Shown: positions 49,397 to 63,958 of the stretch, piece after piece
Layout: each line of letters opens with the position of its first letter
Position numbering within the stretch: the stretch's first letter is position 1
Notes under the pieces: generated by a model
Database searches by the model: none
Told to the model about the DNA's origin: nothing
What the model saw: only the letters and a program-made list of their open reading frames with translations
NCBI GenBank assembly: GCA_963768855.1
Contig: CAVYJM010000006.1
Coordinates: forward strand, 992,001 to 1,056,000
Reading direction: 5' to 3'
Source of the DNA: an uncultured Thermoplasmata archaeon
GTDB taxonomy: Archaea; Thermoplasmatota; Thermoplasmata; RBG-16-68-12
Length of the DNA stretch: 64,000 nt
Position numbers and translations under genes: made by a program

Positions 49397-49470
49397 GCCG
49401 TCGTAGCTCAGTCTGGTAGAGCCCCCGACTGTTAATCGGGTGGTCTGCGGTTCGAATCCGCACGACGGCG
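49397..49470 (+). tRNA. tRNA-Asn(GTT)
   Basis: GCCGTCG/CGACGGC acceptor stem, CCCGA-CTGTTAA-TCGGG anticodon arm, TTCGAAT T-loop. Confidence 0.97.
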
Positions 49471-49516
49471 CTCCCTCTAGGAGTGGGAGGATTCCAATTG
49501 AGGCCATCGGGCGATC

Positions 49517-50500
49517 TCAGGCTCGGCCGAGGGCTTCGCGGACCTCAGCGTGCGCCTGCTTGACCTGCTTCCTAGCGTAGTAGCGCTCGGTCGTGGCAGT
49601 CGTCCTGTGCCTCATTGAGACGCTGACAGCGTCCAGCGGGGCCTGTTGGTCGATAGCCACCTGCCCGAATGTCGCCCTGAAGGTCTTGAGGTGGAACTTG
49701 AGGCGCGCGCGCCTTTCAATCTGGGCCTTCAACTTGCGCATCATCGCCTCCGACCAATAGCCAAGGCCGCCATCGGCGTGACGGAACGGGATGAGTGCCT
49801 CGTGGTAGTCACCTTTCAGGAACCGCTCCCTCGCGTCCAGGAAGTCCCGCAGGGCCAGCATCCCGTCGTCGGAGATGGGCGCGGTCTCGGAGTGTCCTTC
49901 GTTCCACGCGCCTTCTCCCTTAGGATGGCACACGAGGACCTCCTTGTTCTCGAAGTCGACACAGGTGAGGTCCTGTAGCGTTAGTTCCTTCGGCCTCAGG
50001 CCCGTCGCGGGCGCGAAGCGGACGATGAAGCGCGCAACATCTCCCCACCAGCCCTCGTAGCCCTCCACCGCGAGGCGGAGCGCTTTGAGTTGCTCAGGTG
50101 TCAGCGCTTCTGGCGGCTTCTGTGAAGGCCTCGGGAGCCTGTATTGCGGTTTGGTCTTCAGTTGGCCCACGGCGCCGTTGCCACAGAAGGCGAGGAAGCC
50201 CTTGAGCGCACGGAACAGGTGGACTTGGCTCGTCCCGCTTAGGGTGCCGTCCTTGTTCTTGCCCCGCTTCCTTCGGGTGCGCCAGTAGCCGAGCAGGTTT
50301 CCGATGTCGTCCACGGTCATCGCCCTCGGGTTCGTCGTGGATAGCCTGCCACGCTCGCGGAGGAACTTCGCGTCCTCGTTGATGGTGTTGAGGTCCCTGC
50401 GGAGTTGCTCCAGCGTGACGGACGCTCGGTGGTCACGCAACGCGTCCAAGTAGTCGTCGCTCAGCGCAGAGAACGGGTATCGCCCGTGTGGGTTAGGCAC
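49517..50500 (-). CDS. Tyrosine recombinase/integrase
   Basis: TGLRPKEL (R), HPKG (K), LKTFR (KxxR), MRH, TERYY (Y). Start uncertain: GTG 50500 preferred, frame open to 50767. Confidence 0.93.
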   Translation of the reverse strand: MPNPHGRYPFSALSDDYLDALRDHRASVTLEQLRRDLNTINEDAKFLRERGRLSTTNPRAMTVDDIGNLLGYWRTRRKRGKNKDGTLSGTSQVHLFRALKGFLAFCGNGAVGQLKTKPQYRLPRPSQKPPEALTPEQLKALRLAVEGYEGWWGDVARFIVRFAPATGLRPKELTLQDLTCVDFENKEVLVCHPKGEGAWNEGHSETAPISDDGMLALRDFLDARERFLKGDYHEALIPFRHADGGLGYWSEAMMRKLKAQIERRARLKFHLKTFRATFGQVAIDQQAPLDAVSVSMRHRTTATTERYYARKQVKQAHAEVREALGRA

Positions 50501-50810
50501 GCGGACGAACTTCCCTCTGCCATTCCTGTGCTGTCGACAGCGTCTCCCGGTTGTCCCGTGGGTGTTTCCTTCGGCTTCCAAAGTCGAAGCACGGGTTCTT
50601 TCTCCTAGAGACAAGCGAAGTGTCCCGTCTTCGCTCGCCTTCGGAGAACCCATTGACCTGTGGGAGGTTAATGGCTTCGGCCCCGTTCGTCGAGTTGAAC
50701 GCCCCCGCGCCTTCTCGGGTTTGGGTTCGGCGTCTGGCGTCTGGTGACGGCGGGCTAGCGAGAACAAGGGCGTGGCGGTACGGCTCCCGTGGCCGCCCGC
50801 CTCGCGTCAT
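50493..50810 (-). CDS. Hypothetical 105-aa ORF upstream of the integrase
   Basis: Its stop overlaps the integrase GTG; TTTATA-like box on the minus strand at about 50892-50899. Confidence 0.4.
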   Translation of the reverse strand: MTRGGRPREPYRHALVLASPPSPDARRRTQTREGAGAFNSTNGAEAINLPQVNGFSEGERRRDTSLVSRRKNPCFDFGSRRKHPRDNRETLSTAQEWQREVRPRA

Positions 50811-52426: not shown

Positions 52427-52840
52427 TCAAATCTGCTCTCGGCCGTAGCGCATCCGAGGATCAAGGCGACCGCACAGAATGTCGGTCTTCAAGGCAACAA
52501 CGCCCATGATCGAGGCGACTAGAAAGACCCCTAAGAGGACCGGGTAGTCGCGAGTCGTCGCAGAGTCGAACAGTAGCCTTCCCAACCCCGGCCAGGCGAA
52601 GATGACTTCGATAAGTACCGCGCCAATCAGAGAGTATCCCAACCAGAGCCCCGCGAGGGTGACGGTCGGCAGGGATGCGTTCTTCAACAAGTAGCGCGGG
52701 AATACAGACGTCTTCCTAAGTCCTGTCGCCCGGAGGGTGGTCACGAAGTCCTCGTCCAGGGTTTCGATGACGCTTGAGCGAGTCAACTGGTAGAACTGCG
52801 GCACGTAGAACGTCACCATGGAGGCGATTGGCATTACCAT
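52427..52840 (-). pseudogene. DppB/OppB permease, C-terminal fragment
   Basis: LTRSSVIETLDEDFVTTLRATGL, IEVIFAWPGLGRLL, RDYPV, LDPRMRY; N-terminal half absent. Confidence 0.85.
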
Positions 52841-53543
52841 CTGGCCTGTCAATGCACGTATCATGCGTGCGAGCGTGCTCTCCTTGAAGGAGCGGCAGTT
52901 CGTTCGGGTGTCCTCCCGCGTCGTGAGCATCCTGGAGCAAGTGGGACTGAGTCCCGTGGACGCGTTCATGCACAAGTACCCGACAGAGCTCAGCGGAGGC
53001 CAGCGCCAGCGGATGGCAATCGCGAGGGCCCTCGTTGTCAAACCGGACTTCGTCCTCGCGGATGAGCCCGTTTCGATGTTGGATGTCTCGGTCGCGTCCG
53101 GCATCCTCAATCTGATGCCTGATCTACGTCAGCAGTACAAGACTGCCTTCCTGTTCATCGTGCACGACCTGGCCGTCGCACGGTACATAGGCGATCGAAT
53201 CGCTATCATGCATCGTGGCAAGATCGTCGAGCTCGGATATGCAACCGACGTTGTCGGGAATCCATTTCATCCATATACCCCGCTGCTGCTCTCAGCCGTA
53301 CCTGTCACTGACGTCTTGGAGGGACGCGGGCGCGTCGAGACTTGCTCCGATGTTGTCGTCAGGGAGTATGCGGCAATTGGATGCAGATTCTAGTACCAGT
53401 GCCAATGGGTGATGGACATCTGCCGAGACGCGGTTCCGGAGTTGATGCAGCCCGAGAACGGACACACCGTAGCTTGCTACAAGTGCCCGTCCGGAGGCGT
53501 AACCGGTGACGCGGCCTCGGTCGCATCCACTCAGTCGCAGTAG
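52830..53543 (+). pseudogene. Chimeric DppC fragment fused to the C-terminal half of DppF, with internal TAG
   Basis: WPVNARIMRASVLSLKERQFV joined to LSGGQRQR, ADEP, HPYT; no Walker A; TAG 53391 interrupts GCRF*YQC...HTVACY. Confidence 0.85.
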
Positions 53544-53642
53544 CCGAGACCAAGTTGACAACGAGATGGCACTGAGAGAGCACTGGCATCGGTCTGCGCG
53601 TCTGTTGTCCTCAGCTCAGTGTCAACGCTGTCCAGAAACGCG

Positions 53643-54737
53643 TCAGCCTGCCGATTGTGCCATCCGAAGCAGCTTCCGTGCAGGCACGTACCGGCCCGGG
53701 TAGCCCATTGCACGGAGGGCGTCAGAAAACAGCACTGATGCTGCCTTCGATCTCCACTCCTTCTGTGCCTCGACCACGAGAACGACCACTTCATCGTTCG
53801 GCCTCAGGTCCGCGTTAGTGGTTGCTGAGCCGTCCGGCGTCATATAGCAGATGCGATCGGGAGCGAGTGCAGCGGGGCGTTGGTTCCGCAATGCAATCAT
53901 ATTCTCGTTCATCGACTTCACCCTGACATGGCATCCACGATATTCGCCTGTGCCTCGAACGTCGAGTAGTCCAAACGTGTAGCTTCCCTTGCTCTCAGTC
54001 TTGACGCGCTCCACACGTCCGCGCACAAGGATTGCCCCGCCCATTTTGCCCAGCACGGCAGGGACCGGATCCTGTTCCGACGCGACTGCTTCGCGTATGG
54101 CCCTGCCGACTTCTTGTGCTAGGGAGATGGTGCCGGAGATGCACACGCGCTTGGCAATACGGCCGCTCACTCGGTAGCAGGCAAGCCCGGCGAGCCATCC
54201 AAAATCCTCCAGCGCCGAAAGCGCGAGCCTCTCAGCCAGTGCATAACTGTCGGTTCTGATCACCACAGTCTCTCCTGGCGCGTTTCCAAGTGCCATTGGA
54301 GTAAGATGGATGCCCTCGGCAAAGAGAAGCGACTGATTGAGGTGGGGAATAGCCCGTCCCGCACCATCGGCGTCGACGAGGGTGACTGGAGCGTGGGCTG
54401 CGACGGTCATCGGAGTAAGAAAGTTGAATCCACTTGCCTCAACCGGGAGCACGTACTGAATCCGTTCTCCGATCGACTCTTCAAGGGAGGCGAAGGCGCT
54501 CTGCGCCTGCGTCGTGAACGGGATACGTAGCATGGCTTCAGGTGACCCCATGCCCGCAACAGTCACCACTGACGCCTGGTCCTGGACTCCGGAGAGTGGA
54601 GTCATCTGAATAGACTTCCTCCGGAGCCAGCCATCGGCAAGTGCTTTGGCAGCTCGGAAGGATCCACCGCCTCCAGTGCCGAGAATCGTCCCACCCAAAG
54701 CAATATCGAGGAACTCTTTGTACCCGAGCGATCTCAT
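53643..54737 (-). CDS. DUF917-family protein
   Basis: GGTILGTGGGG, GMGSP, PVEASG, DADGAGRAIP, APDRIC. Confidence 0.88.
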   Translation of the reverse strand: MRSLGYKEFLDIALGGTILGTGGGGSFRAAKALADGWLRRKSIQMTPLSGVQDQASVVTVAGMGSPEAMLRIPFTTQAQSAFASLEESIGERIQYVLPVEASGFNFLTPMTVAAHAPVTLVDADGAGRAIPHLNQSLLFAEGIHLTPMALGNAPGETVVIRTDSYALAERLALSALEDFGWLAGLACYRVSGRIAKRVCISGTISLAQEVGRAIREAVASEQDPVPAVLGKMGGAILVRGRVERVKTESKGSYTFGLLDVRGTGEYRGCHVRVKSMNENMIALRNQRPAALAPDRICYMTPDGSATTNADLRPNDEVVVLVVEAQKEWRSKAASVLFSDALRAMGYPGRYVPARKLLRMAQSAG

Positions 54738-55029
54738 CGCGACACCTCAAGCGACTGACTCTATTTATGCCTAGGCATCCCCGTTCGCGGGCATGGGACG
54801 CCGTGGAATACATGGACGGAGCCTGACAACAGGGGGACTAGGCGGACCCTTACAGCGGAGTCTAGTCAACTCTGCCAGCACCTTATGTTGGCCACAGCTT
54901 GGCTGGACGTCGCGCTGCGCGAGCTGGTCCGCTCCCTGGGTCCGAGCCCGATGCATCAGATCTGTCATCTGAGCTTCTCCTCACCATAGCAGTTGCTTAC
55001 GGCCGAGGCCCCCGCATGAGACTCGCCGT

Positions 55030-55818
55030 CTAGAAAGACGCGACCGGGCATGCTGCCGTGATCCCCCCGTCAATCGAGAAGACTGCACCGGTGACATACG
55101 CCGACCGATCGCTTGCCAAAAACAACATCAGCTCTGCAATCTCCTCAGCCGTCCCGAGACGTTTCAGAGGATGGGAGTCTGCGAGCGCCTTTTGCAGCTT
55201 GTCTCGATCGGGAGCAGCGTCGAGCACTTGATCAAGCATCCGTGTATGCAGAGTTGAGGTTGGGGCAACTGCATTGACCCGAATGTTACGATCCCCATAT
55301 TCAATTGCGAGTGCCCTCGTCAGTTGTATGACACCACCCTTCGAGGCACAATATGCGCCGAGATTTGCAAAGCCAACGATTCCTGCATCCGAAGCTGTGT
55401 TGATGATCACCCCCCCGTTCGCACTCAGAAAGTGAGGTATCACATGCTTCGACATCAGGAAAGCTCCCTTGAGATTCGTGTCAATGATGTCGTCCCAAAG
55501 AGCCTCGGATGTCTCGATGATCTTTGCGACCCTCGCGATGCCGGCGTTGTTCACGAGAATGTCTATCCCCTTGAAGGCCTTCAGAGTCTCATCGACGGCG
55601 TGCTTCACTTGGGCCTCATTCCTGACATCTGTCTCAATAAAGAGCGCCTTGCCCCCCGTCCGTTCAACCATGTCTACCGTCTCTCGGCTCCAAGCAGGAT
55701 CCAAGTCGATTACCGCAATCGATGCTCCCTCCTTCGCGAAGCGAAGTGCCGTCGCACGTCCGATGCCTGATGCCGCCCCCGTGATTGCCGCGGTCCGGCC
55801 TGAGAGCTCCATGAACAC
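55030..55818 (-). CDS. Short-chain dehydrogenase/reductase
   Basis: TGAASGIG, NNAG, YCASK. Confidence 0.95.
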   Translation of the reverse strand: MFMELSGRTAAITGAASGIGRATALRFAKEGASIAVIDLDPAWSRETVDMVERTGGKALFIETDVRNEAQVKHAVDETLKAFKGIDILVNNAGIARVAKIIETSEALWDDIIDTNLKGAFLMSKHVIPHFLSANGGVIINTASDAGIVGFANLGAYCASKGGVIQLTRALAIEYGDRNIRVNAVAPTSTLHTRMLDQVLDAAPDRDKLQKALADSHPLKRLGTAEEIAELMLFLASDRSAYVTGAVFSIDGGITAACPVASF

Positions 55819-55946
55819 CGATCAGGCATCGTCGGCTGAGTACAAAACTGTTTTCAGAAAGTCCTTGTTCCGAGAGCTGGAGCCGCGACAGGACTCGCCT
55901 CGAGCCACACGGATTCGTTAAATATGTTCATTCTGATTACTTCTCC

Positions 55947-56972
55947 ATGTCACGTAGGCGCTTGAAACTCTCGTCCCTTGGTGGAGTGCCGATGAGACCC
56001 GCATGGCGAACAACTGGGGTCATCAAGGTCGCGGAGCACCCGGACGGCTCCGCGGAGACCATTCCTTTCGTAGTTGTCACAGGAGCCGCGGAAGGTCCGT
56101 CTCTCTGGATAACGGCGTGTGAACACGGCGACGAGGTACTTAGCGCGAGTGCTGTCGTAGAGTTCATGAGCCGGCTCGATCCCAACGAGGTCAAGGGTCA
56201 GGTTGTCGCCTTGCCCGTCCTTGACAGCACGGCATTCAACATCAAGCGGCGGTTCAGTCCTATCGACAGCTATGACTTCAGTAGGGCGTGGCCAGGCTTC
56301 AAAAACGGTTGGTTGGCGCAGCAGGTTGCCGTTAGGATGTTCGAGCTTCTGAAGGCTCATGCTGACTTCGTGATCGATGTTCACAACGGAATGCCTGGAA
56401 TCTCTGAAGTGGCTCCGTACATGATTGCAGGCTACGAGAGGAGGGAGCAGTGGGAATCTACGATCAAAGGTTTTGCCGAATCCTTTCTCTTCGAGAAGAT
56501 TATCCACTGGGTCGGAACGTCCACTGAACGAGGAGCGCGGACATCAACGATGATGGCGGCGCTCGTCAAAGAGGGGATTCCATCGTTCGTGCCTGAAATC
56601 GGACCCGATACCAACACGGGCACCAAGGTCGCACTTCGAGGCTTCGAGAACTCAATGAAGTACCTCGGAATGCTTGAGGGCGAGCCCAAGAGGTTGCCCA
56701 ATTACATGGCCTTCCCTGATGTGATTCACGTCTTCTCGACGAGGGGCGGTCTATTCAAATCGCACGTGAGCCTTGAGGACGAAGTCAAGGAAGGGCAAAA
56801 GCTAGCTTCAATCCGTAACTTCACTGGCGAGATCACTGAAGAGCTGGTGAGCCCAGCGGCAGGTATTGTCATCGCTATCTGGGTACTCCCGATGATAGGA
56901 TCAGGTGATTTCTCCGCGTACGAGATTGCGACATTCGACGAATTCAGGAAGCCTTGGCCTGGCGAACGATAG
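55947..56972 (+). CDS. Succinylglutamate desuccinylase/aspartoacylase-family (M14-like) deacylase 1
   Basis: CEHGDE, IDVH, PEIG, C-terminal biotinyl-lipoyl-like STRGG...V.EGQ. Confidence 0.88.
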   Translation: MSRRRLKLSSLGGVPMRPAWRTTGVIKVAEHPDGSAETIPFVVVTGAAEGPSLWITACEHGDEVLSASAVVEFMSRLDPNEVKGQVVALPVLDSTAFNIKRRFSPIDSYDFSRAWPGFKNGWLAQQVAVRMFELLKAHADFVIDVHNGMPGISEVAPYMIAGYERREQWESTIKGFAESFLFEKIIHWVGTSTERGARTSTMMAALVKEGIPSFVPEIGPDTNTGTKVALRGFENSMKYLGMLEGEPKRLPNYMAFPDVIHVFSTRGGLFKSHVSLEDEVKEGQKLASIRNFTGEITEELVSPAAGIVIAIWVLPMIGSGDFSAYEIATFDEFRKPWPGER

Positions 56973-57127
56973 CGATGTCGGCTATCCTACGTTGACAACC
57001 CTCTCCGAAATATCCGTAAGCGTGGTGCGTGAGGTCCAGCGGGTCGCATGACGTCGTTCGATTGGCATGCGCCCGCTCCGAGGTATTATCCCTGACAAGC
57101 CGCTACTCCCACCGAGGTGGTGTATTC

Positions 57128-58375
57128 ATGGAACGGATCGATGCGGATGTACTCATCCCGGGACGTGGGGATGTGGTGAAGAACGGTTGCGTGGTTTTGG
57201 ATGGGAAAGCAATTGCCTACTCAGGTCCCATCGAAAGCGCTCCCAACACCCCCGCCGACACCATAGTCCACAACGTGCCCGTCATCATGCCGGGGATGTG
57301 GGATTGCCATGCGCATTTCATGGGGCTGAAAACCGCGGATCTCAGCGAAGCCGCCAGGAGCTCGCCGCAGGTGACGGTTGTGCGAGCTGCCAAAGACGCA
57401 GAGCTCGCGCTACGGGCGGGCTTTACGAGTGTTCGCGAGGCTGGCGGGTATGGAGTCTTCCTTGCCCGCTCCGTGGAAGAGGGGACGCTGAAAGGGCCCC
57501 ACATTTATGGATCTGGGGCTATCCTCAGCGCCACCGGCGGTCACGGGGATCTCCACTCATATCCACTGGATTGGGTGCTCTCCATGGCCTCTTCGGTGGG
57601 CTTCCTCGGCCTCTGCGATGGAGTCGATCAATGCTTCAAGGCCACCCGAAGCCAGCTTCGGCTAGGCGCGCGAGTAATCAAAGTCTGTGCCTCTGGAGGC
57701 GTTCTCAGCACCTTTGACAGCCCCGTTCATCAGCAGTTCACGGACGCCGAACTGAGGGCAATCGTAGAAGCTGCGGGCATGGCGGACCGCATCGTCATGG
57801 CTCATTGCCATGGAAAGGCTGGCATTATGGCCGCTTTGAACGCAGGATGCCATTCCATTGAGCACGGCTCTTACCTCGATGACGAAGCAGCGGAGTTGAT
57901 GGTCCTCAGGAAGGCGATACTGGTTCCTACGCGGTTCATTATCAATCGCCTCCGCGACTTCGCTGAGGTGGCTAAGTTGTCAGACGTATCCTGTCGCAAG
58001 CTCGATCTCCTCGCGGATCATCACAAGGAGGCAATGCGGCTTGCCGTAAGGAAGGGGGTGCGAATCGCCCTGGGGACGGACATCCAGACCTCCGGCATGG
58101 ATACGGCAGTTCCCTGGGGTATGAACGCCTCGGAACTCCGATGCCTCGCCGAGGCGGGCATGACCTCCCTCCAGGCGCTCGAGGCTGCAACGGCCACGGG
58201 GCCGCTCACCTTGGGGCCACAGGCCCCGAAGTCGGGCCAGCTCAAGGAAGGCTACGACGCGGACATACTCGCAGTCGTGAAGAACCCTCTCCAAGACCTC
58301 TCCGTGCTGACGAACCCGGCTAACATTACGGAGATTTGGAAGTCCGGGGCCCTCGTAAAGGATCTGTCCGGGTGA
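57128..58375 (+). CDS. Metal-dependent amidohydrolase (Xaa-Pro dipeptidase/ochratoxinase-like)
   Basis: PGMWDCHAH, IKVCASGG, AHCHG, SIEHG, GTD; GAGGTGG SD. Confidence 0.92.
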   Translation: MERIDADVLIPGRGDVVKNGCVVLDGKAIAYSGPIESAPNTPADTIVHNVPVIMPGMWDCHAHFMGLKTADLSEAARSSPQVTVVRAAKDAELALRAGFTSVREAGGYGVFLARSVEEGTLKGPHIYGSGAILSATGGHGDLHSYPLDWVLSMASSVGFLGLCDGVDQCFKATRSQLRLGARVIKVCASGGVLSTFDSPVHQQFTDAELRAIVEAAGMADRIVMAHCHGKAGIMAALNAGCHSIEHGSYLDDEAAELMVLRKAILVPTRFIINRLRDFAEVAKLSDVSCRKLDLLADHHKEAMRLAVRKGVRIALGTDIQTSGMDTAVPWGMNASELRCLAEAGMTSLQALEAATATGPLTLGPQAPKSGQLKEGYDADILAVVKNPLQDLSVLTNPANITEIWKSGALVKDLSG

Positions 58376-58870: not shown

Positions 58871-59785
58871 TTAGGCGCCGCCTCGCTTCTTCGCTCGCTT
58901 CTCCTTTTCCTTGGGCCACCCCTCGACAGCCCGGGCCGTCGCGAGGGTGTCCTTCTGCGTGCGGTAGACCGCTATGTCGATCATCTGCCCTCTAAGGGGA
59001 ACCGAAGCTTCCCCTCTTTCTATCCCCTCCTCGAAAATCTTGACGACTTCCTTGGCGTAAGCGATTTGAGCTTGAGTCGGTGCGTATATCTCATGCGCGG
59101 GTTCGACCTGTGATGGATGTATCAACATCCTTCCCTCAAAGCCAAGCTGCCGCCCCGTCCGCGAATCCCTGGCAAATCCTTCTTCGTCTCTGAAAGCAGG
59201 ATAAGGTGGGTCTATCGCTATGCATCCGGCGGCCCTGGCAGCTATGGCAGTCCAAGAACGGGCGACCAAGATTTCGCCGCCCTCCTTGGTGAGTGTGACA
59301 CGCATGTCGCGGGTGTAGTCCACGGCTCCGAACACGAGCGAATTGACTCGTTTGCTGCCGAGAGCTGACTCGTATGCGTTGACAACCCCCTTAGCTGTTT
59401 CAATCAGACACTGGATGGCAATGCTGCCTGGCTCCAGACCGTGTGCTTCTTCCAGCTTTGCCAGCCTGTCGTCGAGCTTTGCGGTGTCGTCCTTCGACTC
59501 CGTCTTGGAGAGAACGACGCCATCGAGCCCATCTTGGACTGTGGCTTCGAGATCGGTATCTGTCAGACCAGTCCTCCAGTCATTAACCCTGGCGTAGACG
59601 TAGGCCCCACTCTTCGCCAGGTTCGGAATCGAGTCGTGGACTAGGAACCTCGCTGTCTCCTTCTCGTTAGGCGGTACCGAGTCCTCCAGATCAAGGACGA
59701 ACACATCTGCGGACAGTGTCGGCAGCTTCTCGATCATCCTAAGGTTGTTGCCCGGTGTGTACAAAACTGATCTCATGACGACCAA
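58871..59785 (-). CDS. CitE/HpcH-family CoA-ester lyase
   Basis: RSVLYTPG, DLEDSV, YARVN, LIET, GAVDY, IHPSQ, MID; GGTGA SD before TTG 59785. Confidence 0.92.
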   Translation of the reverse strand: MVVMRSVLYTPGNNLRMIEKLPTLSADVFVLDLEDSVPPNEKETARFLVHDSIPNLAKSGAYVYARVNDWRTGLTDTDLEATVQDGLDGVVLSKTESKDDTAKLDDRLAKLEEAHGLEPGSIAIQCLIETAKGVVNAYESALGSKRVNSLVFGAVDYTRDMRVTLTKEGGEILVARSWTAIAARAAGCIAIDPPYPAFRDEEGFARDSRTGRQLGFEGRMLIHPSQVEPAHEIYAPTQAQIAYAKEVVKIFEEGIERGEASVPLRGQMIDIAVYRTQKDTLATARAVEGWPKEKEKRAKKRGGA

Positions 59786-59819
59786 GCTGTCTCACCTTTC
59801 CCGAAAGCGAGCTCCCGGC

Positions 59820-60734
59820 CTAATATGTTTGTTGCCTCGACTCGCTCAGGATCTCCGCGACCCTTGTAGGAATCTCAGCTGGCTTCTCGACGACGTAGGC
59901 TCCTGCGTCTTTGAGGGCTTCTATCTTGCTCTTGGCCGATCCCTTTCCGTGCTCTACAATGCTGCTGGCGTGCGAGAAGCGCATCCCTTCAGGGGCCCAG
60001 GCTCCCGCAATATATGCTACCAGTGGCTTCGTGAAGTGACCCTTCTTTATCTCCTCGGCGGCTTCTTCTTCGGTAGTTCCTCCGAGTTCGCCGAACATTG
60101 CCACGGCCTTTGTCTGTTCGTCAGCCTCAAAGAGAGGGAGTAGGTCCCCAAAGGACGTGCCTATGATTGGCTCTGTCCCCTCATGGACGAGCGTGCTGCA
60201 GCCATAACCTGCGCGCTTGATGATCCACGGCAAGGTACCGGACTGCCCTCCACTTCGGGACAGAATCCCAATTGGGCCTGGCTGGAAAACCTGAGCTGCC
60301 CTCTCAACCGAGCTTCCAACCCAACCCAGCACAGCCTTCCCAGGAGTCATCACCCCAATGGTCCCCGGTCCTACGATCCGAGCTCCTCTCCGTTTTGCAG
60401 TCGCCACCATCAACATTATGTCGTGCAGCGGAACGCGCTCGACCGGCGATACGATTAACTTTATCCCTGCGTCTATCGCCTCGAGCACCGCGTCTTTCAA
60501 GAGTGGTCCGGGGACGAACGTGACGGTTGCCTCGACGGGCCCGTACTTCCCAACAGCCTCTTGCACCGTATCACAGACCGGGACGCCGGCAGCCACCGTT
60601 CCTCCTCGACCAGGTGTGACACCCGCTAGGATCTTCGTGCCGTATTCTCTCATATACCTCGTATAGGTCTCGCCGGCCCGTCCAGTAACCCCTTGGACTA
60701 TGGCCGTGGTTCTCTCATCAATGAGGATCCCCAC
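59820..60734 (-). CDS. Acyl-CoA synthetase (NDP-forming) alpha subunit, SucD/CcsB-like
   Basis: VQGVTG, GVTPG, VGPGTIG, SRSGG, FSHAS phospho-His. Confidence 0.92.
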   Translation of the reverse strand: MGILIDERTTAIVQGVTGRAGETYTRYMREYGTKILAGVTPGRGGTVAAGVPVCDTVQEAVGKYGPVEATVTFVPGPLLKDAVLEAIDAGIKLIVSPVERVPLHDIMLMVATAKRRGARIVGPGTIGVMTPGKAVLGWVGSSVERAAQVFQPGPIGILSRSGGQSGTLPWIIKRAGYGCSTLVHEGTEPIIGTSFGDLLPLFEADEQTKAVAMFGELGGTTEEEAAEEIKKGHFTKPLVAYIAGAWAPEGMRFSHASSIVEHGKGSAKSKIEALKDAGAYVVEKPAEIPTRVAEILSESRQQTY

Positions 60735-60737
60735 ACT

Positions 60738-61031
60738 TCATCCCCTGACATTGGACAGCGACTCCCTGTACTTGCTCAATTCCGGCATCGGAACAACTAT
60801 CCTGATGGCGCTTAACCCTCGGAGCCGGCACTCATATTCACATGCGAGGCACTCTGTTCCCTGCCTTTCTGTCTCTCCCGAGGACACCACGACCGTGGGC
60901 TTTCCCGCTTGGAGCCTCAGGATACCGCGACTGTAGCGACTACAGGCCTTGATGCATGCCTTTGTTCGGCAGTCTGTGCATCTGGTGTCGTCGATGAATA
61001 TAGTTATCGTTCTTTCATTGAATGCTGTCAT
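60738..61031 (-). CDS. Ferredoxin-like Fe-S protein
   Basis: CTDCRTKACIKAC and ECLACEYEC (7 Cys); ATGA overlap with the beta gene. Confidence 0.8.
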   Translation of the reverse strand: MTAFNERTITIFIDDTRCTDCRTKACIKACSRYSRGILRLQAGKPTVVVSSGETERQGTECLACEYECRLRGLSAIRIVVPMPELSKYRESLSNVRG

Positions 61032-62290
61032 GCGCGCAACCCCCTCTGCTTTCTGTACTCATCCACGAGTGCTCGCATCCTGTCGGCAATGAAGTCAGGG
61101 TTGAAGACGTAGTCGCTTCCGTAGATTTCAAGGCGTATAGGCAGGCCCGCAAGACCCTCTTGCAGAATGGAGTGAGACTCCTTCTCCCGGTTTCCACAAA
61201 TCAGAAGTACCACCGGGAAGCCGGTTTTGTCGATGAGGTCCTCCCTGAACGCCTTCACAAGCGCATGGGCGTGGTGCCACTGCTCTTGGTTGGCCACGAT
61301 GAAACCTCCTAGCAGATATCCCTCGATTCCAGGTTGTGCAAGAATCGTTTTGGCCAAACGGTACACCTTGGACGCAGTGGGGTCACCGCTTGAGTCGGAG
61401 TAGTTGGCGATCCTCAGCCCTCTTCTGTTCAGGGCGTCGACGCCGAGGATGGCTCCGCCGCCGCCGATACCGTGGTAGCCAACATACCCCGGCTCCTCAA
61501 TTTTGGAGACCATTTGTGAGAAATATGCATTGCCCCTGTAGTCACCCTCCTCTATCATCCAGGCGGCCACTTCCAAGGGAGTTGGCTCTCTCTGGAATTC
61601 CCTGGCTACTCGTATCCCGAGTTCTGGATGGCGGAATATGGCTGAATCATCAACGACAACACGACAGTCTGCCGCGACTATGTTCCCATCCGTCGTAAAG
61701 ACCAACGGATTTACCTCCGCCGACCGAGCCTCGTACTTTATGAAGAGTTCGTAGATTCCGCAGACAACGACACTTAAGGGGGCCAGAAGATGTCTCGGAG
61801 CTCCTGCGCTTGAAACGAGTTCGATGGCTTCGGATGACGTAACGCCACGGGGGAAGTCAACGATCAGGCGGGCTACTCTCTCAGGCGACTCCTTTGCGAC
61901 CTCCTCAATGTCGACCCCTCCCCGAGTACTGAACATGATCACTGGACCTCTTATCGCTCGAGAAGTGTCGACGATAACCCCAACGTAGAACTCCGTGTCT
62001 ATGTCAAGCCTCTCCTCGACCAGTACCCTTTCCACCCTTACCCCTTTGATTTCAGCGCCTAGAAGCTCCTTTGAAACCGCCTCCGCCTCGTCGGGGCTGT
62101 TTGCAGGCTTGATTCCACCGGCTTTGAAGCGACCGGTTGCCCAGATCTGCGCCTTGATCATCACCGGTTTCCCAATCTCGGTGGCGATGCTTTTCGCTTC
62201 GGCGGATGTGGAGGCGACCTTGCCGGACGGCACGGGAATCTTGACGTCGCGCAGCAACTGCTTTCCCTGGTACTCATGCAATCTTACCAT
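61028..62290 (-). CDS. ATP-grasp acyl-CoA synthetase beta subunit, citryl-CoA-synthetase/ACL-like
   Basis: LHEYQGK, IKAQI..TGRFKAGG, EVNPL; substrate domain GGGGA...ANYSDSSGDP instead of SucC NGAG...NFLDVGG. Confidence 0.9.
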   Translation of the reverse strand: MVRLHEYQGKQLLRDVKIPVPSGKVASTSAEAKSIATEIGKPVMIKAQIWATGRFKAGGIKPANSPDEAEAVSKELLGAEIKGVRVERVLVEERLDIDTEFYVGVIVDTSRAIRGPVIMFSTRGGVDIEEVAKESPERVARLIVDFPRGVTSSEAIELVSSAGAPRHLLAPLSVVVCGIYELFIKYEARSAEVNPLVFTTDGNIVAADCRVVVDDSAIFRHPELGIRVAREFQREPTPLEVAAWMIEEGDYRGNAYFSQMVSKIEEPGYVGYHGIGGGGAILGVDALNRRGLRIANYSDSSGDPTASKVYRLAKTILAQPGIEGYLLGGFIVANQEQWHHAHALVKAFREDLIDKTGFPVVLLICGNREKESHSILQEGLAGLPIRLEIYGSDYVFNPDFIADRMRALVDEYRKQRGLRA

Positions 62291-62947
62291 GCTGCTGCTC
62301 AGACTCCGTAATGCACGTCCTTGAGATTAAAGGATTCTTTCGGTTGCTCACACCGCCTGTCGAGGTTTCGCTCCCATGGCCGAGTCTCGGAGTTGCAGAC
62401 CCATCACGTGGCACTGCCAGAAGTGCTATCCGATCTGCCAAAGTTACCGGGTTCACGGTGGCGCCGCGTCCGAGGCATCTTACTGCGATGGGCGAAATCA
62501 TGTTGGACGGAGCCAACCGCCATACATTTCCAATCGATTCACCGATGGCGATTAGTGATTGGTCCCGGCACGGCAATGATCACAGGATTGAATCCGCTTA
62601 CAGGCGTTCCGCTCATGATGTCTCTTATGAGATTATTGTCACTTGGCCACGGGTTGCGGGCTTGTAGGTGGAAGGTGCCCGCTGAATTCCCATAAATACC
62701 ACACCGGATCGGGACTATCATCCCGCGACCCGGCAAAGGTTGAAGATCTCTTCTCGAAACTGTGTCTTCAGACTTCGGGGTAACGCAACCACTCCGCAGC
62801 AGGCCCAGCTATCTGCAGCAGACGGCTAGGCAACAATCTGCAAGACTGCGGCGAGCCTCGTTGTTGGCGGTGCAGAACATATCCAAAACGGCGGCTGGGA
62901 ACGTTCAAATAATAGGATCCAAATACACGCAGTCGGGGGTCAATTCC

Positions 62948-63958
62948 TTGGCCGATCTTGTTCTAGGGAGGACGAAGGCGAAACAGGGGACGAAAGCTCA
63001 CGGCACTCTCAAAGTAGCTGAACATCCCGATGGGTCTCCTGAACAAATCCCTTTCGTCCTCGTGAATGGCTCAGGCGACGGACCCTCGCTATGGATCGCA
63101 GGCTGTGAACACGGGGACGAGTATCTTGCTGCTGCCACGATTATAGAGTTCATTGCCCAGCTCGACCCCGAGAAGGTGAAAGGCCAGGTCGTTGCATTCC
63201 CCGTACTTGACAGCACCGCCTTCAATATCAAGGAGCGGTTTAGCCCGATTGATCACTATGACTTTAGCCGGGCGTATCCAGGTTTCAGGAACGGGTGGTT
63301 GGCCCAACAGATCGCTTTTCAGTTTATTGAACTCGCTTCAAAGAGAGCGGACTACGCCCTTGATATGCACAATGGTATTCACGGGGTCGTGGAGGTAAGC
63401 CCATATTGTGTCGTCAATTACGAGACCGAAGAGCAGTGGAAGTCGATGTATCAAGGATTCGTCGAGTCCTTCTTGACCGAGAAGATTGTGCATTGGTTTG
63501 GGACGTCTACTGAGCGCGGTGCTCGCACTTCGATGATGAATAACGCCCTCATGCACAAAGGGATTCCTTGCTATGTCCCGGAGATCGGGCCGGATCTGAA
63601 GACTGGAATGCCTCATGGCATCCGGGGTTTGCAGAACACCATGAAGTACCTGGAAATGCTCGATGGGCGGCCAGAAAAGCTCGAGAAGTATAGAAACTTC
63701 CCGGACGTCCTCCACGTGTTCCCAACACGGGGTGGAGTCTTCAAGTCTTACGTTGAACTCAATGAAGAGGTCAAAGAAGGACAGAAGCTGGCGTCTATCC
63801 GTAGTTTTTACGGCGAGATTACCGAAGAGCTCGTGGCACCAGCCGCAGGAGTCATCGTGGCGAGATGGCTAATCCCGGTGATCGGTACAGGCGATTTCAG
63901 CGCTTTCCAGTTAGCGCCATTCAAGCCCTTTGACCGACCGTGGCCTGGTGAGCGCTGA
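62948..63958 (+). CDS. AstE/AspA-family deacylase 2, paralog of 55947-56972
   Basis: CEHGDE, LDMH, PEIG, shared PWPGER end. TTG 62948 chosen from the GGGGGT SD and alignment to the paralog. Confidence 0.88.
   Translation: MADLVLGRTKAKQGTKAHGTLKVAEHPDGSPEQIPFVLVNGSGDGPSLWIAGCEHGDEYLAAATIIEFIAQLDPEKVKGQVVAFPVLDSTAFNIKERFSPIDHYDFSRAYPGFRNGWLAQQIAFQFIELASKRADYALDMHNGIHGVVEVSPYCVVNYETEEQWKSMYQGFVESFLTEKIVHWFGTSTERGARTSMMNNALMHKGIPCYVPEIGPDLKTGMPHGIRGLQNTMKYLEMLDGRPEKLEKYRNFPDVLHVFPTRGGVFKSYVELNEEVKEGQKLASIRSFYGEITEELVAPAAGVIVARWLIPVIGTGDFSAFQLAPFKPFDRPWPGER

Follow-up and report, generated by a model that had tools for sequence, protein, structure and literature searches.

A citryl-CoA-synthetase-like ligase with a probable third, cysteine-rich subunit and a CitE-type lyase on a genomic island of a Thermoplasmata archaeon

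Among the described ligases of the superfamily of succinyl-CoA synthetase (SCS), citryl-CoA synthetase (CCS) and ATP-citrate lyase (ACL), where CoA is coenzyme A and ATP adenosine triphosphate, CcsAB of Hydrogenobacter thermophilus (6HXQ) is a two-gene SCS-like enzyme followed by a separate, citrate-synthase-like lyase, Ccl, and malate thiokinase, MtkAB, of the serine cycle is an SCS-family ligase that goes with a CitE-family lyase, MclA. A malyl-CoA route with a gain of ATP has been attributed to Syntrophobotulus glycolicus and Moorella HUC22-1 (PMC8092247). Here we analyse a four-gene operon at positions 58871-62290 of a 64,000-nucleotide stretch from the genome of an uncultured Thermoplasmata archaeon (GCA_963768855.1, contig CAVYJM010000006.1, positions 992,001 to 1,056,000; the whole stretch is called the window below), which encodes the beta and alpha subunits of an acid-CoA ligase of this superfamily, a small Cys-rich protein and a CitE-type lyase.

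The unit works like CcsAB with Ccl or MtkAB with Mcl and belongs to neither. With the Hydrogenobacter system it shares a two-gene SCS-like ligase with the same type of acid-binding C-domain and the succession of a ligase and a separate acyl-CoA lyase, but its lyase is of the CitE/HpcH type, an extra subunit with seven cysteines is predicted and its gene neighbours do not indicate citrate. With MtkAB and MclA it shares the pairing of an SCS-family ligase with a CitE-family lyase and, as with the anaerobic glycolate/glyoxylate route, the proposed chemistry (glyoxylate + acetyl-CoA <-> malyl-CoA <-> malate + ATP); the bacterial modules are moreover linked to glycolate-oxidase-like genes. The beta subunit is nevertheless no orthologue of MtkA and lacks the Ligase_CoA C-domain. 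What is new is a ligase of the SCS/CCS/ACL superfamily with a dedicated, predicted Cys-rich subunit and a CitE-type lyase as its fixed partner. We know of no member of this superfamily with an iron-sulfur (Fe-S) subunit, and none is known to us for MtkAB. Our literature search found no publication on this ligase family, and two papers on Thaumarchaeota mention merely orphan citE genes.

The ligase and lyase genes and their conservation

All four open reading frames (ORFs) are intact and lie on the minus strand in the order beta, small protein, alpha, lyase (Table 1). Their spacing is so tight, with an overlap of 4 nucleotides (nt) between beta and the small protein and gaps of 3 nt before alpha and 34 nt before the lyase, that we regard them as one operon. 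An earlier note on this DNA, made from the letters alone, had described these four tightly linked genes, and the ORF list and translations agree with it, including the beta motifs GIGGGGA, ANYSDSSGDPTASKVY and ILAQPGI that it quoted. The lyase starts with TTG, with an ATG as its fourth codon, and the TTTAAT element before the ATG of beta is a possible archaeal TATA box.

To see how widely the module occurs, species-representative genomes (one genome per prokaryotic species) were scanned with the peptides QWHHAH[GA][LVI] and G[ND]PTA[SA]K[VC]Y. The family peptides are encoded in 335 stretches, and all locus counts in this work refer to the best 80 of these 335 (69 bacterial and 11 archaeal, all metagenome-assembled genomes, MAGs). 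The taxa among these 80 include Bathyarchaeia, Nitrososphaeria, Geothermarchaeales, Heimdallarchaeota, Anaerolineae, Dehalococcoidia and many Thermodesulfobacteriota, and carriers of the wider family include Chloroflexota, Thermodesulfobacteriota and Syntrophales. The order beta, small protein, alpha is kept in 79 of the 79 loci that are long enough to tell, and metagenome contigs have the same four-gene order. CitE comes next in 65 of the 80 loci; most of the others end sooner, and four longer ones (L011, L020, L080 and L081) have no CitE. Because CitE adjoins the ligase in so many archaeal and bacterial loci, the synteny survey that the earlier note had proposed finds the two linked well beyond this genome, and its view that the ligase is paired with CitE rather than with a citrate-synthase-like Ccl is borne out by the HpcH_HpaI-type partner seen across the loci. 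A protein search with beta returned more than 6000 relatives, with a Citrate_bind match in all 120 that were listed. We conclude that the beta/small/alpha ligase and the CitE lyase very probably form a real unit of a three-subunit ligase plus lyase. In one Anaerolineales MAG, whose beta stands on a very long tree branch (2.9), a second pair of small and alpha genes lies 3′ of CitE (L014:12685-13943).

The beta subunit matches ATP-grasp_2 with 192 bits and Citrate_bind marginally (28.0 bits against a cut-off of 26.8); Citrate_synth_N stays below its cut-off (37.7 bits against 83), and the Pfam search gave no match to Ligase_CoA (PF00549). Beta also falls short of the NCBIfam cut-offs for SucC (NF001913, 246.0 bits against 370; TIGR01016, 227.2 against 375.55) and for MtkA (NF010647, 164.8 bits against 604). 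A canonical SucC ends in a Ligase_CoA domain with the succinate-site loops NGAG and GGI(V/T). Aligned with the canonical SucC of the host, beta has GGGG in place of NGAG, an insertion of ~15 residues that CcsA has too in HMMER alignments, and a second loop, GGFIVANQEQWHHAH, that is 4 residues longer. The earlier note had held that beta lacks the succinate-site signature of SucC and that the ligase is neither an SCS nor a known Ccs/Ccl; with the signature replaced, the SucC and MtkA models missed and a CitE-type partner, both views stand.

Among solved structures, the closest characterised protein to full-length beta is the guanosine-triphosphate-preferring SCS beta of Thermus aquaticus (3UFX; 236 bits, 37% identity); E. 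coli SucC has 139 bits and Hydrogenobacter CcsA 132. The likeness to 3UFX lies mostly in the ATP-grasp domain, however, and 3UFX has neither a small subunit nor a CitE partner. When the C-domain (residues 225-420) was searched alone, CcsA came first (54 bits, E 1.5e-13), ahead of the Thermus SCS (36 bits), Chlorobium AclB (33.5 bits) and other SucC (~17 bits), in agreement with the Ccs/ACL-type acid-binding domain that had been proposed before; residues 318-420 alone gave no useful match in the PDB. Overall identity to CcsA is ~28%, and the alignment reaches as far as the second acid loop. Beta and CcsA have the GGGG loop, ANxxDxxGxPxAxKxY, ILxxPGI and the insertion in common, but beta has its own invariant QEQWHHAH and GNxExE, and its N-domain is nearer to SucC (3UFX). 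The motifs of the beta family are GIGGGG, GDPTASKVYR, ANQEQWHHAH and GNxExE.

In Foldseek, the AlphaFold model of beta (predicted local distance difference test, pLDDT, 83) matched SCS beta chains first, with 3UFX at the top, CcsA 11th and ACL chains lower. From ACL (AclAB/ACLY) the system differs in fold rank, in its marginal Citrate_bind match, in a Citrate_synth_N score under the cut-off and in having no CCL module. The acid-site loops do not vary across 14 archaeal and bacterial members (mean column identity 73%), which argues for one family-wide substrate. A genome of the same order holds an intermediate SucC-like gene (L091, G036:C30:13646-14776; 34% identity, 203 bits) in which the motifs GGPT and GNKWKE are present and the family insertions absent, and this gene may be a link between SucC and the beta family.

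The alpha subunit scores below the SucD cut-offs (TIGR01019, 286.5 bits against 353.2; NF004230, 276.2 against 336), and its His255, within the motif RFSHASS that is invariant among homologues, is the presumed phosphohistidine. The lyase belongs to the HpcH/HpaI superfamily (PF03328, 162.8 bits against 25) and has the fold and the metal- and substrate-binding residues of CitE, CLYBL, RipC and Mcl, with D32, E34, D35, R66, E129 and D156 unvarying in 14 homologues. Judging by these residues and by His255, ligase and lyase appear catalytically competent. Among curated models, citE (TIGR01588) fits the lyase best with 212 bits against a cut-off of 443.4, RipC_Ccl gives 134 bits against 375, and the haloarchaeal malyl-CoA lyase model is missed as well, so no equivalog cut-off is reached; the protein is equally near to Deinococcus CitE, human CLYBL (138 bits) and two malyl-CoA lyases (132 and 119 bits). 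It also differs from the CitE of citrate lyase in its setting: no CitF was found in the host genome, which is 93.6% complete (CitD was not searched for), and on this ground the lyase must act on a CoA ester and not on an acyl carrier protein (ACP) ester.

The small cysteine-rich protein

The cysteines of the small protein follow the pattern CxxCxxxxCxxxC ... CxxCxxxC, and all seven are each kept in at least 90% of 52 homologues. In a three-chain model of beta, the small protein and alpha, the interface score (ipSAE) was 0.82 against 0.09 for the best control. Among solved complexes, 58 of 80 attain that mark, as do 2 of 110 mismatched pairs; because the complex job used custom alignments, these counts are only a rough guide here. 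At least 94% of the contacts agree between runs, and the partner pLDDT is at least 84. To our knowledge no such complex has been solved, which makes it unlikely that the score reflects a memorised structure. The predicted interface on beta consists of family-specific segments (238-250, the PTASKVYR helix 305-320, the WHHAH helix 338-346, and 375-379), and the small protein also contacts residues 18-19 of alpha in the model, within the GxTGxxG CoA loop. Two MAGs of Bathyarchaeia have a single ORF for beta plus the small protein (L074:7974-9611, 545 amino acids, aa; L087:7989-9617, 542 aa), in which WYHGY stands at the place of WHHAH and the second Cys motif is complete, with CxxCxxCxxxC.

The complex model and the fusions make it probable that this protein serves the ligase as a third subunit. 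It would sit on the acid-binding domain of beta, beside the CoA pocket of alpha, where its role might be structural or one of redox or O2 sensing. The earlier note had called it a ferredoxin, which holds in so far as the protein is Cys-rich and ferredoxin-like, while it is better taken for a probable ligase subunit. An Fe-S cluster in it is likely. Its Fer4_6 score is below the Pfam cut-off (16.8 bits against 25), and its fold model (pLDDT 80) has a weak likeness to Fe-S domains (E 0.017, template modelling score ~0.5), the matches being those of ABCE1, archaeal RNA polymerase subunit D, HgcB and ferredoxins. Where 2x[4Fe-4S] ferredoxins have two CxxCxxCxxxCP motifs, the small protein has the two spacings given above.

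Substrate and direction of the reaction

Genes for GlcD/E-like flavin adenine dinucleotide (FAD) oxidases (TIGR00387 224 bits, under the cut-off) adjoin the module in 36 of the 69 bacterial loci, and for this reason we favour malyl-CoA as the substrate, a tentative reading of gene context to which we give somewhat less than an even chance. The same bacterial loci hold GntR-FCD regulators (31), GlcF-like CCG proteins (25), TRAP DctP binding proteins (16), D-2-hydroxyacid dehydrogenases (10), lactate/glycolate permeases (4) and oxaloacetate decarboxylases (4), a layout that resembles a glc operon with the lyase and ligase in place of malate synthase and that agrees with the ATP-yielding malyl-CoA route attributed to Syntrophobotulus glycolicus and Moorella HUC22-1 (PMC8092247). 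Class I fumarase alpha and beta genes (NF004885, 274.6 bits against a cut-off of 276) lie directly 3′ of CitE in two archaeal loci (L056 and L071) and in 3-4 bacterial ones, and both the glycolate-type bacterial neighbours and the archaeal fumarase point to glyoxylate and malate. An Fmt-like formyltransferase of 303 aa (TIGR00460, 168 bits against 201.5), which the readings considered here leave unexplained, stands directly 3′ of CitE in 39 of the 69 bacterial loci (e.g. L044:8662-9573 and L005:9687-10598).

As an acid-CoA ligase of the SCS/CCS/ACL superfamily, the enzyme would be ADP-forming (ADP, adenosine diphosphate) and would have been acquired horizontally together with the lyase. The lyase would condense glyoxylate and acetyl-CoA to (S)-malyl-CoA, and the ligase would convert malyl-CoA, ADP and phosphate to malate, CoA and ATP through the phosphohistidine of alpha. 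Such a unit would bypass malate synthase, conserve the thioester bond in the form of ATP and be reversible in principle. Condensation followed by the gain of ATP is the likely direction to judge from the neighbours, the opposite of the activate-then-cleave order that the earlier note had supposed.

Several points weigh against malyl-CoA. The substrate is called from gene neighbourhood, and neither the 11 archaeal loci nor the window have GlcDEF-like neighbours; the clade to which the window belongs adjoins thiamine pyrophosphate (TPP) enzymes, 2-oxoacid:ferredoxin oxidoreductase, M20/M24 hydrolases and a GltD-like flavoprotein. The C-domain of beta is nearest to a citrate-activating enzyme, and the lyase has its top score with the citE model and stands equally close to CLYBL and malyl-CoA lyases. 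In addition, class I fumarases also hydrate mesaconate, and a fumarase neighbour therefore leaves room for citramalate.

A second SCS of the ordinary kind, with the CitE gene and the ferredoxin as mere chance neighbours, is highly improbable. The Thermus SCS beta is indeed the closest protein over the full length and by fold, and public sources name the homologues "succinyl-CoA synthetase beta subunit" or "ATP-grasp protein", but beta and alpha miss the SucC and SucD cut-offs, beta has no Ligase_CoA domain, the host already has a canonical SucC, and the fixed order of four genes across phyla and domains, the fusions of beta with the small protein and the rebuilt acid-site loops would be hard to place. 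A citrate system deserves more weight and is still unlikely. Here a citryl-CoA synthetase would act with a CitE-type citryl-CoA lyase, as a third, partly non-homologous means of ATP-dependent cleavage or, in reverse, of ATP-yielding synthesis. Beta matches Citrate_bind and its C-domain shares loop, motifs and insertion with CcsA, its second acid loop has the length of that of ACL in a gap-free alignment to Chlorobium AclB, the model that fits the lyase best is that of citryl-ACP lyase, and in L005 the module has a CitMHS-type carrier nearby. The margin over the Citrate_bind cut-off is only 1.2 bits, however, with Citrate_synth_N far below, and Asn346 and Thr348 of human ACLY, which we take to be citrate contacts, correspond in the gap-free AclB alignment to Ala333 and Gln335, both unvarying in the family. 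The host, moreover, is already an oxygen respirer with a canonical SCS, and the genes that recur beside the module are of the glycolate, fumarase and PrpD-like types and not those of the tricarboxylic acid (TCA) or reductive TCA (rTCA) cycle. Citrate was the lead candidate of the earlier note, and the GlcD/E/F-like proteins, GntR-FCD regulators, glycolate/lactate-type transporters and fumarase do not favour it. A third, independently assembled citrate-cleaving or citrate-forming system, with a Ccs-like ligase gated by its own Fe-S subunit and a CitE-type lyase, seems to us quite doubtful.

ATP-dependent activation and cleavage of citramalate or another 2-/3-hydroxy-dicarboxylate, e.g. of (S)-citramalate through citramalyl-CoA to pyruvate and acetyl-CoA, has likewise a minor chance. 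Such a system would end a catabolic route for acids freed by the deacylases and amidohydrolases of the island. The lyase is as near to human CLYBL, a citramalyl-CoA lyase, as to the malyl-CoA lyases, and amide hydrolases stand beside archaeal modules (M20 in L003, L094 and L095; M24 in L011, L056 and L071), as do three AstE/AspA-like genes and an amidohydrolase in and just past the window; PrpD-like genes and class I fumarase/mesaconase-type genes are each present in 6 loci. On the other side, no itaconyl-CoA hydratase or CoA-transferase gene is found nearby, glycolate-type neighbours are by far the commonest, the lyase is well below the RipC_Ccl cut-off, and the ATP cost of cleavage would be high for the anaerobes that hold most copies.

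If malyl-CoA is the substrate, the unit supplies the genes so far missing for a route that replaces malate synthase and conserves ATP, and genome-based views of glycolate and glyoxylate turnover in sediments would change. If it is citrate, inferences on the rTCA cycle would be altered, as Bathyarchaeia, Syntrophales, Dehalococcoidia and others would carry out a reductive or reversed TCA step that has gone unrecognised and that current marker-gene surveys miss.

The island and its host

In the window, the unit is cargo of an integrative island, here inside an oxygen-respiring archaeon, which is likewise new. The features of the island within the window are collected in Table 1. The last 22 nt of the tRNA-Asn 3′ end are repeated directly 13.5 kilobases (kb) beyond the window end (L008:13477-13498; L008 is the sequence just past the window), and with this repeat as attR the island is bounded at ~28 kb. 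A second, partial repeat of 15 nt lies 1.2 kb further on (L008:14685-14699, 14.7 kb past the window end) and may be a remnant of a second tandem element. The GC content of the island is ~0.55-0.60, against 0.65-0.70 in the flanks. Searches of 40 relatives (24 congeners and 16 of the same order) did not turn up the module family; all matches there were canonical SucC with 31-41% identity. With its tRNA target, integrase, direct repeat, deviant GC content and absence from relatives, the island is tRNA-integrated; the earlier note had spoken of an archaeal island, and the genome is archaeal by its small-subunit (SSU) rRNA (1494 bits).

Table 1. Features of the ligase-lyase operon and of the surrounding island, in window coordinates
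Feature	Position	Strand	Remarks
tRNA-Asn(GTT)	49397..49471	+	integration site (attL)
Tyrosine recombinase	49517..50767	-	Phage_integrase family; island edge
Island cargo before the module	52427..58375	.	ABC transporter remnants, DUF917/S-Me-THD-like protein, short-chain dehydrogenase/reductase (SDR), AstE/AspA-like deacylase, Xaa-Pro-dipeptidase-like amidohydrolase
CitE/HpcH-family acyl-CoA lyase, 304 aa	58871..59785	-	HpcH_HpaI member
Ligase alpha (small) subunit, 304 aa	59820..60734	-	CoA_binding and Ligase_CoA domains (Pfam); invariant RFSHASS
Small 7-Cys protein, 97 aa	60738..61031	-	ferredoxin-like; predicted third subunit on the beta C-domain
Ligase beta (large) subunit, 420 aa	61028..62290	-	SucC-like ATP-grasp N-domain and Ccs/ACL-type acid-binding C-domain
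Divergent intergenic region 5′ of beta	62291..62761	.	TTTAAT element ~35-45 nt before ATG
Second AstE/AspA-like deacylase	62762..63958	+	divergent from the ligase operon

In a tree of beta whose outgroups were host-type SucC and one intermediate SucC-like gene only, the window beta groups, with full support, with the copies of two Bathyarchaeota MAGs and one Nitrososphaerales MAG and with three metagenome proteins, the identity within this clade being 82% at best. The unit would have arrived on the island from a Bathyarchaeia-like lineage. The end branch of the window beta is 0.22, against ~0.06 in its sisters, and every family-invariant residue is kept; the longer branch would fit a faster rate of change once the gene had moved into a GC-rich host.

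The assembly of the host comprises 2.87 Mb, and the DNA of the operon occurs in metagenomes from freshwater sediment and wetland, with no RNA dataset among the matching datasets listed. The host has, at G000:C11:59066-60304 and C6:598775-600085, an isocitrate lyase of 434 aa and a haem-copper oxidase subunit I. It also has a canonical SucC of its own, which resembles Thermoproteota-rich clusters in the ESM Atlas, and neither a malate synthase (PF01274) nor an HpcH-family gene besides the CitE of the island was found in its genome. Because isocitrate lyase is present and no malate synthase was found, the module may serve as the malate-synthase step of the host and so complete its glyoxylate shunt. 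The pattern is broken elsewhere, which makes this idea a weak one: among the 24 congeners, 19 have isocitrate lyase and 9 malate synthase, with several holding isocitrate lyase and neither a detected malate synthase nor the module, and five archaeal carriers of the module lack both a true isocitrate lyase and a malate synthase. As an explanation for the whole family, we reject completion of the shunt in view of these five carriers and the several congeners.

Among the other genes of the island are those for a DUF917 protein, an SDR, an aminotransferase and a Dpp-type ABC transporter. Three AstE/AspA-family paralogues flank the module (55947-56972 and 62762-63958 in the window and L008:143-1153), with weak scores of 72-93 bits against the cut-off of 403 of the DoeB model, and the amidohydrolase has 252 bits against the Xaa-Pro dipeptidase cut-off of 500. 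Allantoin, hydroxyproline and ectoine were considered as the feedstock of the island, and with these scores below their cut-offs we make no call. The Dpp-type ABC set is intact at L008:4582-10463, and truncated ABC pieces, a permease fragment of 227 aa and, on the opposite strand, an ATPase/oligo_HPY fragment of 191 aa, lie at 52427-53393 of the window.

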